Source of the DNA: Escherichia coli | GTDB lineage: Bacteria > Pseudomonadota > Gammaproteobacteria > Enterobacterales > Enterobacteriaceae | Strand: one strand, 5' to 3' | Assembly (NCBI RefSeq): GCF_003334785.1 | Contig: NZ_QOWV01000002.1 | DNA: 64,000 bases | Part shown: positions 8,110 to 48,956 of the stretch, one piece after another | Position numbering within the stretch: the stretch's first letter is position 1 | Layout: each line of letters starts with the position of its first letter | Program-made: the position numbers and the translations under genes | Notes under the pieces: generated by a model | Databases searched by the model: none | Seen by the model: the letters and a program-made list of their open reading frames with translations, nothing else | What the model was told of the DNA's origin: nothing

Positions 8110-9837
8110 ATGCGAAATAAAAATATAATCATGTTGCTTATGAGTAGTTTGATTTTGTCAGGATGTGGGCCGCAACCTGAGAATAAGGAAAGTCAGCAAC
8201 AACAACCCAGTACTCCCACAGAGCAGCAAGTGCTTGCCGCGCAGCAAGCTGCAATAAAAGAGGCTGAGCAAAGCGCCGCCGCCGCGAAAGCCTTGGCCCA
8301 GCAAGAAGTGCAACAATATTCAGACAAACAGGCTTTACAGGGGCGATTGCAGGAAGCGCCAACATTTGCAAGAGCGGCTAAAGCAAAAGCTACACATATC
8401 GCAAATCCAGGAACCGCTCGCTACCAGCAGTTCGATGATAATCCGGTTAAGCAGGTAGCGCAAAATCCGTTGGCGACGTTTAGTCTTGACGTTGACACTG
8501 GCAGTTATGCGAATGTAAGGCGTTTCCTCAATCAAGGGCTGTTACCTCCGCCAGACGCTGTGCGGGTGGAGGAGATAGTCAATTATTTCCCGTCTGATTG
8601 GGATATCAAAGACAAACAATCTATTCCGGCCTCTAAGCCAATACCTTTCGCTATGCGCTACGAATTGGCACCTGCACCATGGAATGAACAGCGAACATTG
8701 CTGAAAGTTGATATCCTGGCGAAAGATCGCAAAAGTGAAGAGTTACCAGCTTCTAATCTGGTCTTTCTTATCGACACTTCTGGTTCAATGATTTCTGATG
8801 AACGTTTGCCACTTATCCAGTCTTCGTTGAAATTATTGGTCAAAGAACTTCGTGAGCAGGATAACATTGCCATCGTGACCTACGCTGGCGACTCCCGTAT
8901 TGCATTGCCTTCTATCTCCGGGAGTCATAAGGCGGAAATTAATGCCGCAATTGATTCGCTGGATGCCGAAGGCAGTACCAATGGCGGTGCCGGGCTGGAA
9001 CTGGCTTATCAGCAGGCGACGAAGGGGTTTATTAAGGGCGGCATCAATCGCATTTTATTAGCCACTGACGGTGACTTTAACGTTGGCATTGACGATCCAA
9101 AATCGATTGAATCAATGGTCAAAAAACAGCGGGAGTCTGGTGTTACTCTGTCGACGTTTGGCGTGGGGAATAGCAATTACAACGAGGCAATGATGGTGCG
9201 AATTGCCGATGTTGGTAACGGCAACTACAGCTACATTGATACCCTCTCTGAAGCGCAGAAAGTATTGAATAGTGAAATGCGGCAGATGTTGATTACCGTA
9301 GCAAAAGATGTCAAAGCGCAAATTGAGTTTAACCCCGCGTGGGTAACGGAATACCGTCAGATTGGTTATGAAAAGCGCCAACTTCGGGTGGAACATTTTA
9401 ATAACGACAACGTTGATGCAGGGGATATAGGCGCAGGCAAACATATAACGTTGTTATTCGAATTAACGCTGAACGGGCAAAAAGCATCAATTGATAAGTT
9501 ACGCTATGCCCCGGATAACAAATTAGCGAAATCGGACAAAACGAAAGAACTGGCCTGGTTAAAAATTCGCTGGAAATACCCGCAGGGAAAAGAAAGTCAG
9601 TTAGTTGAATTCCCGCTGGGGCCAACAATAAACGCGCCCTCTGAAGATATGCGTTTTCGCGCAGCAGTAGCTGCATATGGGCAAAAGTTACGCGGTTCTG
9701 AATACCTGAACAATACCTCCTGGCAGCAGATCAAACAGTGGGCTCAGCAGGCAAAAGGGGAAGATCCACAGGGTTACAGGGCGGAATTTATTCGCCTGAT
9801 TGAACTGGCGGATGGTGTGACTGACATCAGTCAGTGA
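8110..9837 (+). CDS. yfbK: von Willebrand factor A domain lipoprotein YfbK
   Basis: 575-aa ORF; lipobox LILSGC at N-terminus, Q/A-rich linker, vWA MIDAS motif DTSGSM (LVFLIDTSGSMISDERLPL). Confidence 0.85.
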   Translation: MRNKNIIMLLMSSLILSGCGPQPENKESQQQQPSTPTEQQVLAAQQAAIKEAEQSAAAAKALAQQEVQQYSDKQALQGRLQEAPTFARAAKAKATHIANPGTARYQQFDDNPVKQVAQNPLATFSLDVDTGSYANVRRFLNQGLLPPPDAVRVEEIVNYFPSDWDIKDKQSIPASKPIPFAMRYELAPAPWNEQRTLLKVDILAKDRKSEELPASNLVFLIDTSGSMISDERLPLIQSSLKLLVKELREQDNIAIVTYAGDSRIALPSISGSHKAEINAAIDSLDAEGSTNGGAGLELAYQQATKGFIKGGINRILLATDGDFNVGIDDPKSIESMVKKQRESGVTLSTFGVGNSNYNEAMMVRIADVGNGNYSYIDTLSEAQKVLNSEMRQMLITVAKDVKAQIEFNPAWVTEYRQIGYEKRQLRVEHFNNDNVDAGDIGAGKHITLLFELTLNGQKASIDKLRYAPDNKLAKSDKTKELAWLKIRWKYPQGKESQLVEFPLGPTINAPSEDMRFRAAVAAYGQKLRGSEYLNNTSWQQIKQWAQQAKGEDPQGYRAEFIRLIELADGVTDISQ

Positions 9838-41446: not shown

Positions 41447-42805
41447 ATGTTGAGTATTTTTAAACCAGCGCCACACAAAGCGCGCTTACCTGCCGCGGAG
41501 ATCGATCCGACTTATCGTCGATTGCGCTGGCAAATTTTCCTGGGGATATTCTTTGGCTATGCGGCTTACTATTTGGTTCGTAAGAACTTTGCGCTTGCTA
41601 TGCCTTATCTGGTTGAGCAGGGATTCTCACGCGGTGATTTAGGTTTTGCCCTTTCGGGGATCTCGATTGCTTATGGATTTTCGAAATTCATCATGGGTTC
41701 GGTATCGGATCGCTCGAATCCGCGCGTTTTCCTGCCCGCAGGTTTGATTCTGGCGGCGGCAGTGATGTTGTTTATGGGCTTTGTGCCATGGGCGACGTCG
41801 AGCATTGCGGTGATGTTTGTACTGTTGTTCCTCTGCGGTTGGTTCCAGGGGATGGGGTGGCCGCCGTGTGGTCGTACTATGGTGCACTGGTGGTCGCAGA
41901 AAGAACGTGGCGGCATTGTGTCAGTGTGGAACTGTGCGCACAACGTCGGTGGTGGTATTCCGCCGCTGCTGTTCCTGCTGGGGATGGCCTGGTTCAATGA
42001 CTGGCATGCGGCGCTCTATATGCCTGCTTTCTGCGCCATTCTGGTGGCATTATTCGCCTTTGCGATGATGCGCGATACCCCGCAATCCTGTGGCTTGCCG
42101 CCGATCGAAGAGTACAAAAATGATTATCCGGACGACTATAACGAAAAAGCGGAACAGGAGCTGACGGCGAAGCAAATCTTCATGCAGTACGTACTGCCGA
42201 ACAAACTGCTGTGGTATATCGCCATCGCCAACGTGTTCGTTTATCTGCTGCGTTACGGCATCCTCGACTGGTCACCGACTTATCTGAAAGAGGTTAAGCA
42301 TTTCGCGCTAGATAAATCCTCCTGGGCCTACTTCCTTTATGAATATGCAGGTATTCCGGGCACTCTGCTGTGCGGCTGGATGTCGGATAAAGTCTTCCGT
42401 GGCAACCGTGGGGCAACCGGCGTTTTCTTTATGACACTGGTGACCATCGCGACTATCGTTTACTGGATGAACCCGGCAGGTAACCCAACCGTCGATATGA
42501 TTTGTATGATTGTTATCGGCTTCCTGATCTACGGTCCTGTGATGCTGATCGGTCTGCATGCGCTGGAACTGGCACCGAAAAAAGCGGCAGGTACGGCAGC
42601 GGGCTTTACCGGGCTGTTTGGTTACCTGGGCGGTTCGGTGGCGGCGAGCGCGATTGTTGGCTACACCGTGGACTTCTTCGGCTGGGATGGCGGCTTTATG
42701 GTAATGATTGGCGGCAGCATTCTGGCGGTTATCTTGTTGATTGTTGTGATGATTGGCGAAAAACGTCGCCATGAACAATTACTGCAAGAACGCAACGGAG
42801 GCTAA
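41447..42805 (+). CDS. glpT: Glycerol-3-phosphate:phosphate antiporter GlpT (MFS)
   Basis: 452-aa MFS ORF. Confidence 0.95.
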
Positions 42806-42809
42806 TGGC

Positions 42810-43886
42810 ATGAAATTGACGCTGAAAAACCTTAGCATGGCGATCATGATGAGCACTATAGTCATGGGAAGCAGTGCAATGGCGGCGGACAGCAACGAAA
42901 AAATAGTCATCGCCCATCGCGGTGCCAGTGGATATTTGCCGGAGCATACGCTGCCAGCAAAAGCGATGGCGTATGCGCAGGGAGCGGATTATCTGGAACA
43001 GGATTTGGTGATGACCAAAGACGACAATCTGGTTGTTCTGCATGACCATTACCTCGATCGTGTTACTGATGTTGCCGATCGTTTCCCGGATCGGGCGCGC
43101 AAAGACGGTCGTTACTACGCGATAGATTTCACGCTGGATGAAATTAAGTCGTTGAAATTTACCGAAGGTTTCGATATTGAAAACGGTAAAAAAGTGCAGA
43201 CTTATCCGGGGCGTTTCCCAATGGGTAAGTCCGACTTCCGGGTGCACACCTTTGAAGAAGAGATTGAATTTGTTCAGGGGTTAAATCACTCTACCGGGAA
43301 AAATATCGGTATTTATCCAGAAATCAAAGCGCCGTGGTTCCATCATCAGGAAGGGAAGGATATTGCGGCAAAAACGCTGGAAGTGCTGAAGAAATATGGT
43401 TACACCGGTAAAGACGATAAAGTTTATTTGCAATGTTTTGATGCTGATGAGCTGAAGCGTATTAAGAATGAGCTGGAACCCAAAATGGGCATGGAGCTCA
43501 ATCTGGTACAGCTGATTGCCTATACCGACTGGAATGAAACGCAGCAGAAACAGCCGGATGGAAGCTGGGTTAATTACAACTACGACTGGATGTTTAAGCC
43601 GGGTGCCATGAAACAGGTGGCGGAATATGCAGATGGTATTGGTCCGGATTACCATATGTTGATTGAGGAGACATCGCAGCCGGGTAATATCAAACTCACT
43701 GGCATGGTGCAAGATGCTCAGCAGAATAAACTGGTAGTGCATCCTTATACCGTGCGGTCAGATAAACTGCCTGAATACACTCCTGATGTGAATCAGTTAT
43801 ATGATGCTCTGTATAACAAAGCGGGTGTAAATGGGCTGTTTACTGATTTCCCTGATAAGGCAGTAAAATTTCTTAATAAAGAGTAA
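42810..43886 (+). CDS. glpQ: Periplasmic glycerophosphodiester phosphodiesterase GlpQ
   Basis: Track ORF starts in glpT; ATG at 42810 after GGAGG SD gives 358 aa with signal peptide and GDPD motif (IVIAHRGASGYLPEHT). Confidence 0.95.
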   Translation: MKLTLKNLSMAIMMSTIVMGSSAMAADSNEKIVIAHRGASGYLPEHTLPAKAMAYAQGADYLEQDLVMTKDDNLVVLHDHYLDRVTDVADRFPDRARKDGRYYAIDFTLDEIKSLKFTEGFDIENGKKVQTYPGRFPMGKSDFRVHTFEEEIEFVQGLNHSTGKNIGIYPEIKAPWFHHQEGKDIAAKTLEVLKKYGYTGKDDKVYLQCFDADELKRIKNELEPKMGMELNLVQLIAYTDWNETQQKQPDGSWVNYNYDWMFKPGAMKQVAEYADGIGPDYHMLIEETSQPGNIKLTGMVQDAQQNKLVVHPYTVRSDKLPEYTPDVNQLYDALYNKAGVNGLFTDFPDKAVKFLNKE

Positions 43887-43894
43887 TGTTACTG

Positions 43895-43920
43895 CAGGAT
43901 GGCGTTCATGCGCCATCCTG
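43895..43920 (+). terminator. Rho-independent terminator after glpQ
   Basis: caggatggcg-ttcat-gcgccatcctg hairpin 9 nt after the glpQ stop. Confidence 0.6.
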
Positions 43921-43927
43921 TCTCATA

Positions 43928-44179
43928 TCAAATTTTTCCAATCGCCACTAATTGTTCCATGCACATTTGTAGTAAAAACAGTGGACTGCCTTCTACCGGC
44001 TTTTCTTTAGCCAGCAACGAAATCTGTCGATAGAAAGTTGGTTCGAGAGGAACGGAACACAATTCACCTGCAATGCTTTTCAGCGTTAACTCTGGTTGTA
44101 AGGCGATGCCTAATCCCTGTCGAATAAAATTTATCGCTGTATCCGCCTGATTAAATTCACATTTTATCTGCTGGGCGCA
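43928..44179 (-). pseudogene. yfaH: LysR-family regulator C-terminal fragment (yfaH-like), no start codon
   Basis: Minus-strand open frame translating to ...IKCEFNQADTAINFIRQGLGIALQPELTLKSIAGELCSVPLEPTFYRQISLLAKEKPVEGSPLFLLQMC..., typical of a LysR effector-domain C-terminus; no HTH part or in-frame ATG. Confidence 0.5.
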
Positions 44180-44348
44180 CTATTAGTGGTAGTGGCTGGT
44201 GGAATCTATGCGCTGCAAATGAAGGGTAAAAGCGGTGTCAAGCTAGTAGTGGCAAAAGAAATTCATTAATACGACACGTTTCATTAAGATTTTCCTCAGG
44301 TAACCACCTATAGTCATTGTCGTTAATAAAAATGACAGGCGATAGGGT

Positions 44349-44999
44349 ATGGCAGTTTCAGCAAAGTACGACGAATTTAATCACTGGTGGGCAACAGAGG
44401 GCGACTGGGTTGAAGAGCCTAACTATCGCCGTAATGGTATGAGCGGGGTGCAATGCGTCGAGCGCAACGGCAAAAAGCTGTATGTAAAGCGCATGACGCA
44501 TCATCTGTTTCATTCCGTACGTTATCCGTTCGGCCGACCAACGATTGTCCGTGAGGTTGCGGTAATTAAAGAACTGGAACGGGCCGGTGTCATCGTGCCG
44601 AAGATCGTTTTTGGTGAAGCGGTGAAAATTGAGGGTGAATGGCGAGCGTTGCTGGTGACTGAAGATATGGCGGGGTTCATCAGCATTGCTGACTGGTATG
44701 CCCAGCATGCAGTATCGCCTTATTCTGACGAAGTACGGCAAGCCATGTTGAAAGCAGTGGCGCTGGCGTTTAAGAAAATGCATAGCATTAATCGTCAGCA
44801 TGGCTGTTGTTATGTTCGCCATATCTATGTGAAAACAGAAGGTAATGCAGAAGCTGGTTTTCTTGACCTGGAGAAAAGTCGTCGCCGCTTGCGTCGCGAT
44901 AAAGCGATTAATCATGACTTCCGCCAGCTGGAAAAATATCTGGAGCCAATCCCCAAAGCGGACTGGGAGCAGGTGAAAGCGTATTACTACGCCATGTAA
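44349..44999 (+). CDS. inaA: Acid-inducible Kdo/WaaP-family kinase-like protein InaA
   Basis: 216-aa ORF MAVSAKYDEFNHWWATEGDWVEEPNYRRNGMSGVQ... Confidence 0.9.
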   Translation: MAVSAKYDEFNHWWATEGDWVEEPNYRRNGMSGVQCVERNGKKLYVKRMTHHLFHSVRYPFGRPTIVREVAVIKELERAGVIVPKIVFGEAVKIEGEWRALLVTEDMAGFISIADWYAQHAVSPYSDEVRQAMLKAVALAFKKMHSINRQHGCCYVRHIYVKTEGNAEAGFLDLEKSRRRLRRDKAINHDFRQLEKYLEPIPKADWEQVKAYYYAM

Positions 45000-46437: not shown

Positions 46438-46461
46438 GAGTGTGTCCTGTTGGGAGTTTAA

Positions 46462-46661
<200 letters not shown>

Positions 46662-46670
46662 ATCTCAATA

Positions 46671-48956
46671 TCAGATCTTACATGCGCCGCTTTCGCAGCC
46701 ATCGTCCTGGATTGACGGCACCAGATCGTCTTGTGCGTCTTCAGCGCCGTCACGGGTGTTCTGATAATACAGTGTTTTGACCCCGAATTTGTAGGCGGTG
46801 AGCAGGTCTTTCAGCAACTGCTGCATCGGCACTTTTCCTGACGGGAAGCGTGACGGATCGTAGTTGGTGTTGGCAGAGATCGACTGATCGATAAATTTCT
46901 GCATGATACCCACCAGTTGCAGATAACCATCGTTACCCGGCATTTCCCACAGCAGCTCATAGGCGTCGTGCAGGTGCTCGTAGTCCGGCACCACCTGGCG
47001 CAAAATACCGTCTTTCGACGCTTTGATGCTGACGTAACCGCGCGGCGGTTCAATACCGTTAGTGGCGTTAGAGATCTGCGAAGAAGTCTCGGACGGCATC
47101 AGAGCAGAAAGCGTGGAGTTACGCAGACCGTGCGTTTTGATTGACTCACGCAGAGCTTCCCAGTCGTAATGCAGCGGCTCATTAGCGATGGTATCCAGAT
47201 CTTTCTTATAGGTATCGATCGGCAGGATCCCTTTCGCGTAAGTGGTTTCGTTAAACCACGGGCACGCGCCTTGCTCTTTCGCCAGCTCATTAGAGGCTTT
47301 CAGCAGGTAATACTGAATGGCTTCGAAGGTTTTATGCGTCAGGTTGTTGGCGCTGCCGTCGGAGTAGCGTTTACCGTGCTTCGCCAGGTAGTAAGCGAAG
47401 TTGATCACACCAATACCCAGCGTACGACGACCCATCGCTCCACGTTTGGCGGCCGGGATCGGGTAATCCTGATAATCCAGCAGCGCGTCAAGTGCACGAA
47501 CCGCCAGAATTGCCAGCTCTTCCAGTTCATCCAGGTTATTAATTGCGCCCAGGTTGAAAGCAGACAGCGTACACAGCGCGATTTCACCGTTCTCGTCGTT
47601 GACGTCGTTCAGCGGTTTGGTCGGCAGGGCTATCTCCAGGCACAGGTTAGACTGACGCACTGGCGCGATGGCCGGATCAAACGGGCTATGGGTATTGCAG
47701 TGGTCAACGTTCTGAATATAGATACGACCGGTAGACGCACGTTCCTGCATCATCAGCGAGAACAGCTCAACGGCTTTCACACGCTGCTTGCGGATGCTGT
47801 CGTCTTTCTCATATTTGGTATACAGACGTTCAAACTCTTCCTGATCGGCGAAGAACGCGTCGTACAGCCCCGGTACGTCGGACGGGCTGAACAGGGTGAT
47901 ATCTTCACCTTTCAGCAGACGGGTATACATCAGTTTGTTGATTTGTACCCCGTAGTCCATATGACGCACGCGGTTGCCTTCCACACCACGGTTGTTTTTC
48001 AACACCAGCAGGCTTTCCACTTCCAGATGCCACATCGGGTAGAACAGCGTTGCCGCACCGCCGCGCACACCGCCCTGAGAGCAGGATTTCACCGCTGTCT
48101 GGAAATGTTTGTAGAACGGAATGCAGCCGGTATGGAACGCTTCACCACCGCGAATCGGGCTACCCAGCGCACGAATACGCCCGGCGTTGATGCCGATCCC
48201 GGCACGCTGGGAAACGTATTTAACAATCGCGCTGGAGGTGGCGTTGATGGAATCCAGGCTGTCACCGCACTCGATCAGTACGCAGGAGCTGAACTGACGA
48301 GTCGGGGTACGCACGCCGGACATGATTGGCGTCGGCAGCGAAATTTTAAATGTGGAAACCGCGTCGTAAAAACGCTTCACATATTGCAGGCGCGTTTCAC
48401 GCGGGTAGTTCGAGAACAAGCACGCGGCAACTAGAATATAAAGGAACTGGGCGCTCTCATAGATTTCGCCGGTCACGCGGTTCTGTACCAGATATTTGCC
48501 TTCCAGCTGCTTAACGGCAGCATAAGAGAAGGTCATATCACGGTCGTGATCGATAAAGGTGTCCATCTGCTTGAACTCTTCTTCCGTGTAGTCTTCCAGC
48601 AGATGATTATCGTATTTGCCCATCTCGACCATTTTCACCACGTGGTCGTACAGCGCAGGCGGCTCAAACTGGCCGTAGGCTTTTTTACGCAGGTGGAAGA
48701 TCGCCAGGCGCGCGGCGAGATACTGATAATCCGGCGCATCACGGGAGATCAGGTCTGCGGCAGCCTTGATAATGGTTTCGTGGATGTCAGAGGTCTTGAT
48801 ACCGTCATAAAACTGAATGTGGGAGCGCAGCTCGACCTGGGAAATCGAAACGTTATGCAGTCCTTCTGCCGCCCAATCCAGAACGCGATGGATTTTGTCG
48901 AGATTGATGCGCTCTGTGCTACCGTCGCGCTTTGTCACCAGCAGATTCTGATTCAT
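46671..48956 (-). CDS. nrdA: Class Ia ribonucleotide reductase alpha subunit NrdA
   Basis: 761-aa ORF with ATP-cone N-terminus ([29 protein letters not shown]). Confidence 0.95.

Follow-up and report, generated by a model that had tools for sequence, protein, structure and literature searches.

In the genome annotation of Escherichia coli MG1655, a pseudogene named yfaH (b2238, 2349687-2349893) is placed between inaA and glpQ. Mentions of yfaH in the literature are limited to a marker site linked to gyrA, for which the pseudogene was replaced by a cassette carrying the selectable marker (PMC2714960), and to one expression table, in which it is found among the genes with changed expression in a study of CpxR (PMC9600279); the latter indicates that some RNA covers yfaH. 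In O157:H7 and many other E. coli strains the corresponding interval contains two complete genes, and the order is glpQ, a gene for a LysR-type regulator (minus strand, 292-299 amino acids, 879-900 bp), a gene for an MFS transporter (plus strand, 396 amino acids, 1191 bp) and inaA. Pfam analysis of the intact regulator assigned an HTH_1 domain to residues 3-63 and a LysR_substrate domain covering model positions 2-188. A search of the intact pair against NCBIfam gave no equivalog above cut-off, the best LysR matches (models for GltC, CidR, AlsR, and CynR) scoring far under their cut-offs. Only NF007272 (PRK09729) passed, a 68-amino-acid 'hypothetical protein' model matching residues 226-291 of the regulator; judging from its length of 68 amino acids, this model is probably a legacy of the old K-12 YfaH ORF call.

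The window analyzed here is a 64,000-nucleotide stretch of an E. coli genome in which glpQ and inaA are separated by 462 bp, in accordance with the approximately 460 bp given in a previous sequence-only reading. The features of the locus are as follows.

41447-42805: glpT.
42810-43886, plus strand: glpQ coding sequence (glycerophosphodiester phosphodiesterase), left neighbor; from the ORF list, the 1077-bp glpQ of the K-12 PGAP annotation likewise ending at the spacer.
43887-44348: glpQ-inaA spacer, 462 bp.
43894-43921: perfect 12-bp stem with a 4-nt loop, candidate shared terminator (RNA fold, -22.5 kcal/mol).
43928-44170, minus strand: LysR-family remnant (yfaH), comprising the 3'-terminal 80 codons and the stop codon of a gene for a regulator of 292-299 amino acids (BLASTP, Pfam, PGAP).
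44132, minus strand: T here and C in MG1655, by which the ATG of K-12 yfaH reads ATA; ATC (Ile) in intact genes.
44163-44170: deletion junction at the 8-bp microhomology TTTATCTG; the window has a single copy, the intact allele two copies at a distance of 1879 bp.
44165-44269, plus strand: MFS-transporter remnant, consisting of the final 34 codons and the stop codon of a gene for a 396-amino-acid protein (BLASTP, PGAP).
44271-44314, plus strand: conserved inaA upstream block, presumed core promoter (conservation across alleles and in sister Escherichia lineages).
44349-44999, plus strand: inaA coding sequence, right neighbor (ORF list, PGAP).

Beyond inaA, the window continues with yfaE and nrdB. 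Upstream of nrdB (approximately 46440-46700, minus strand), the longest minus-strand ORF passes the nrdB start and its translation (…RLIRPTA…) repeats; from their sequence, these repeats look like REP/BIME-type palindromic units between nrdA and nrdB. MG1655 has a tiny gene, yoaM, annotated in the nrdA-nrdB interval.

Comparison with MG1655 revealed that the feature between glpQ and inaA is not new. The window differs from MG1655 at only two of 7001 bases (40877 and 44132), which shows that it derives from a K-12-like strain, and its spacer is 100% identical to that of strain LR-64-2. The 207 bp of MG1655 yfaH correspond to window positions 43928-44134, with the same position and strand relative to the neighboring genes and with 206 of 207 bases and 67 of 68 codons identical; the first annotated codon, ATG in MG1655, is ATA in the window (base 44132). 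The homologous remnant runs 36 bp (12 codons) further upstream than the MG1655 annotation, to 44170. PGAP annotates the equivalent 243 bp of K-12 (43928-44170) as 'LysR family transcriptional regulator, incomplete, missing N-terminus', a call made at this feature in thousands of genomes, and 105 bp on the opposite strand (44165-44269) as an incomplete hypothetical protein. The region 43928-44170 is the already catalogued pseudogene yfaH.

The sequence-only reading had described an open frame of about 84 codons with no start codon, all of which (43928-44179) was assigned to the C-terminal end of a LysR-type regulator. The frame indeed comprises 83 sense codons on the minus strand (43931-44179, CAQQIKCEFNQADTAINFIRQGLGIAL...VAIGKI) followed by a stop codon at 43928-43930, and two in-frame stop codons lie directly upstream (44180-44185). 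ATG and GTG are absent throughout 43931-44179, and the single start-type codon is a TTG at 44062, from which the ORF list derives a product of 44 amino acids. The LysR_substrate model (PF03466) matched the encoded fragment at model positions 131-189 of 209 (E = 1.2e-6), and BLASTP against the intact 299-amino-acid E. coli LysR protein gave 69 of 79 identical residues (87%, E = 3e-47) over residues 213-291. At the nucleotide level, the blocks that include the remnant are 92.7-95.6% identical to the intact locus, with 93.8% over the 243 bp of the remnant itself. The assignment to LysR is thereby borne out for 43928-44170, up to the deletion junction (44163-44170); the nine bases past it, 44171-44179 (codons C-A-Q), belong instead to the antisense strand of an MFS-transporter remnant.

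The fragment has little of what a functional LysR-type regulator requires. Pfam found no HTH_1 domain (PF00126) in it, the corresponding region being inside the deleted segment, and the effector domain is reduced to positions 131-189 of approximately 209. It has no start codon, the divergent promoter region is deleted, and the stop codons at 44180-44185 close the frame upstream. On the other hand, it has what is expected of a pseudogene derived from such a regulator, namely collinear similarity to an intact gene at the same locus in relatives and a loss of purifying selection, the latter based on small substitution counts.

The search for a full-length ortholog located the intact gene between glpQ and inaA and defined the boundaries of the deletion. 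Alignment of the window with the intact locus gave two collinear blocks, one at 43701-44175 (glpQ through the 3' end of the LysR gene) and one at 44163-44500 (3' end of the MFS gene into inaA), which overlap at 44163-44175. This overlap contains the octamer TTTATCTG, of which the window has one copy (44163-44170) and the intact E. coli locus L003 two (8276-8283 and 10155-10162), which identifies a deletion of 1879 bp at an 8-bp microhomology. The notion of a deletion remnant of a regulator gene was thus correct. As a result of the deletion, the 3'-terminal 80 codons of the LysR gene (43928-44170) are fused to the 3'-terminal 34 codons of the MFS gene (44165-44269); the encoded MFS tail is identical to the intact transporter at 31 of 34 positions (91%, residues 363-396, E = 5e-18) and represents a second remnant in the spacer that had been overlooked before. 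Four of five other strains with the deletion allele (K-12, L012, L013, and L015) share the junction, with one substitution in the repeat of L013; in the fifth, L014, the junction was not recovered by the anchor motif.

We consider it almost certain that the frame is a non-functional remnant (yfaH) of a LysR-type regulator left behind by this deletion. In this reading, the ancestral order was glpQ, a LysR gene on the opposite strand, a divergent MFS transporter gene and inaA. A single 1879-bp deletion between the 8-bp direct repeats TTTATCTG, probably by microhomology-mediated recombination or replication slippage, removed the LysR start, the HTH DNA-binding domain and approximately 70% of the LysR protein; the divergent promoter region shared by the two genes and the first 362 codons of the MFS gene were lost with it. 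The result is two tail-end fragments placed back to back without a promoter, start codon, or DNA-binding domain. The remnant DNA, which has no known activity, drifts neutrally and probably lacks any residual role.

The polarity of this event was deduced from outgroups. In Escherichia whittamii and Escherichia sp. E1V33, the LysR-MFS pair has glpQ on one side and inaA on the other, and in MOD1-EC7003 it adjoins inaA-yfaE-nrdB, the available stretch ending before the glpQ side. The pair also adjoins yfaE-nrdB in Kluyvera georgiana, Kluyvera genomosp. 3 and a Pseudocitrobacter MAG, with inaA between the pair and yfaE-nrdB in Pseudocitrobacter but not in Kluyvera. This synteny indicates that the intact state is ancestral and the state of the window derived. 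The opposite order of events, an insertion of the LysR-MFS pair into an ancestral K-12 arrangement, was rejected: it conflicts with the outgroup synteny, and the truncation points of both fragments coincide exactly with the shared microhomology. In Kluyvera genomosp. 3 YDC799 (L011:3193-4067) the LysR ortholog is present in two pieces with a frame change at residue 59/60, which is either a frameshift, and then another pseudogenization, or a sequencing error.

The distribution of the alleles was determined in 5426 complete E. coli genomes. The deletion allele, with a window-type spacer in one piece, was found in 3105 genomes (57%), and the intact allele, in which the deleted segment is retained, in 1217 (approximately 22%). 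A third, 'empty' allele of the Nissle 1917 type with a spacer of 201 bp was present in 1057 of the 5426 genomes (example: strain EcN_Sk, L004:5898-6098, corresponding to window 43887-44348). Like the window, the Nissle-type allele lacks functional LysR and MFS genes and has retained the upstream block of inaA; unlike the window, it is devoid of LysR sequence, and of the MFS gene only about 20 bp at the 3' end are left. The approximately 100 bp after glpQ are unrelated to the intact locus, and its junction differs from that of the window. The differences in junction and content point to a separate, independent loss, so that the LysR-MFS pair was lost at least twice in E. coli. Together, the two loss alleles (K-12 type, 3105; Nissle type, 1057) account for approximately 77% of the complete E. 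coli genomes, while sister Escherichia lineages, Kluyvera, and Pseudocitrobacter still have the pair. That its loss was favored by selection rather than being neutral decay appears doubtful; in a weaker variant of this idea, the fused remnant may now act as spacer and terminator between glpTQ and inaA.

Several individual loci depart from the three main forms. In H31, an IS1 element is inserted within an otherwise intact LysR-MFS pair, and H55 keeps just the last 393 bp of the deleted segment. Strain EC19 (L014:1-300) has the deletion allele, but the 300 bp preceding the match contain no annotated glpQ. In O157:H7 FRIK804 (L002:6476-7546), an extra gene for a 356-amino-acid hypothetical protein separates glpQ from the intact LysR gene; the other intact allele, L003, does not have it, and the encoded protein had no NCBIfam match at E ≤ 0.001. 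The same O157-type hypothetical gene, together with glpQ, LysR, and MFS genes, is found on a 3.5-kb contig deposited as 'MAG: Collinsella sp.' (L005, JAIJJM010000334.1) with 93-100% identity to E. coli; this contig appears to come from E. coli and to have been mis-binned into an actinobacterial MAG.

At the left end of the spacer, the hairpin at 43894-43921 sits where glpQ and the LysR remnant converge, between their stop codons, and from this position and its predicted fold it is plausibly a terminator shared by the two. It was not called by a consensus terminator scan because no T-run directly follows the stem. An Rfam search of the spacer yielded sub-threshold matches alone (RmaA, Ysr197, and sRNA71), the RmaA match at 43879-43978 (plus strand) reaching 24.1 bits versus a gathering score of 57. 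In Erwinia, RmaA is located between sufE and lpp and not near glpQ (PMC4070566); with the match driven by the hairpin and the Erwinia locus unrelated, an RmaA small RNA at 43879-43978 was treated as a chance hit.

At the right end, the upstream sequence of inaA that is common to all three alleles starts at approximately 44250, about 98 bp before the ATG, and its best conserved part begins directly after the MFS stop codon (44267-44269). This block, which is kept in the deletion, intact, and empty alleles as well as in sister Escherichia lineages, contains a marbox-like 19-mer (44271-44289, three mismatches to the consensus) and a TATAGT hexamer resembling a -10 element (44309-44314). Searching the window with the marbox consensus gave 135 matches versus 138 expected, and the 19-mer at 44271-44289 is one of many matches with three mismatches, so that taken alone it does not exceed chance. 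A scan of 43800-44420 for sigma-70 promoters and terminators under strict criteria gave no matches. The block at 44271-44314 is presumed to be the inaA core promoter. Work by Martin et al. from 1999 reportedly placed the inaA marbox so that it overlaps the -35 region. Searches of the literature for the inaA transcription start site (inaA promoter, MarA class II, SoxS/Rob sites) returned no usable position; one study used the inaA promoter in a reporter, and its main text gives no coordinates (PMC5257004).

These findings bear on the proposal of the sequence-only reading that the fragment may be part of the inaA 5' region, either as cis-acting promoter-upstream sequence or as 5' UTR. The fragment does share the 462-bp spacer with inaA, lying 179-421 bp upstream of its ATG, and a distal inaA promoter is formally conceivable. 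However, the only nearby marbox-like site and the TATAGT hexamer are located downstream of the MFS stop codon, more than 100 bp beyond the LysR remnant and within the approximately 98 bp that all alleles share. In intact strains, 1.9 kb of genes separate the fragment DNA from inaA; in approximately 1057 genomes of the Nissle type the fragment is wholly absent and the inaA block is kept. In addition, the fragment gathers substitutions, a frameshift, and a stop codon. Considering its distance from the conserved block, its remoteness in intact strains and its absence from the Nissle type, a role of the fragment in the inaA 5' region is very unlikely, and the proposal is not supported.

Even less probable is that the fragment encodes a small functional protein, the 68-amino-acid YfaH of older K-12 annotations, consisting of a free C-terminal LysR subdomain. 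An in-frame ATG opens a 68-codon ORF in K-12 and in several other remnant alleles, and the NCBIfam model NF007272 agrees with it in length and sequence. The history of this codon argues against such a function: it is ATC (Ile) in intact genes, ATG in most remnants including K-12, and ATA in the window, where the frame accordingly has neither ATG nor GTG. The start of the '68-aa YfaH protein' is thus a mutational accident at an internal Ile codon that was lost again in the window. The substitution pattern argues in the same direction. For the last 80 codons, dN/dS was 0.05-0.12 between intact copies, 0.7-2.1 between remnants and their nearest intact E. coli copies, and 0.7-1.0 among remnants; the shift to non-synonymous changes was significant (Fisher p = 3.6e-4), though counts were small (approximately 15 substitutions). 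With a dN/dS of about 1 from these small counts, the remnant seems to evolve neutrally. In agreement, individual remnant alleles are disrupted by a frameshift (L012) or an in-frame stop codon (L014), the gene's own promoter region is deleted, and both the MG1655 annotation and PGAP treat the feature as a pseudogene. The frame is still open in most remnant alleles sampled, which is unsurprising given its length of about 80 codons and the short time elapsed.

A chance origin of the open frame and its LysR resemblance can be dismissed: stop-free stretches of at least 83 codons are frequent (202 in the window versus approximately 123 in shuffled sequence), so that openness alone is no evidence and homology has to provide it, but the 87% identity over 79 amino acids to a syntenic intact LysR protein (E = 3e-47), the Pfam match (E = 1.2e-6), and the nucleotide collinearity with the intact locus leave no room for coincidence.

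The reading of yfaH as a remnant left by deletion provides a base-level reconstruction of how a gene remnant arose, in which one 1879-bp deletion at an 8-bp microhomology truncated two genes together. The ATG underlying the former annotation of a '68-aa YfaH protein' arose by mutation of an internal Ile codon, and the glpQ-inaA 'spacer' of K-12-like strains is mostly dead coding DNA and not regulatory sequence. In practical terms, markers can reasonably be inserted at yfaH as a neutral site, and the polymorphism with its three alleles (intact, K-12-type deletion, and Nissle-type deletion) could serve as a simple lineage marker. The significance is otherwise small; this is an ordinary gene remnant, and the repeated loss of the pair is only mildly interesting.

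The closest intact counterparts of the two fragments are the intact proteins of O157:H7 and other strains. The LysR fragment is orthologous to residues 213-291 of the uncharacterized regulators WP_000176738.1 and WP_000176733.1 (87% amino acid identity), and the adjoining fragment to residues 363-396 of the MFS transporters WP_000660231.1 and WP_000660220.1 (91%). In the intact pair, the regulator has an HTH_1 domain and a full effector domain, the transporter is complete, and a divergent promoter region is present; all of this is missing in the window, whereas the flanking genes of the intact pair are the same as those that enclose the two remnants.
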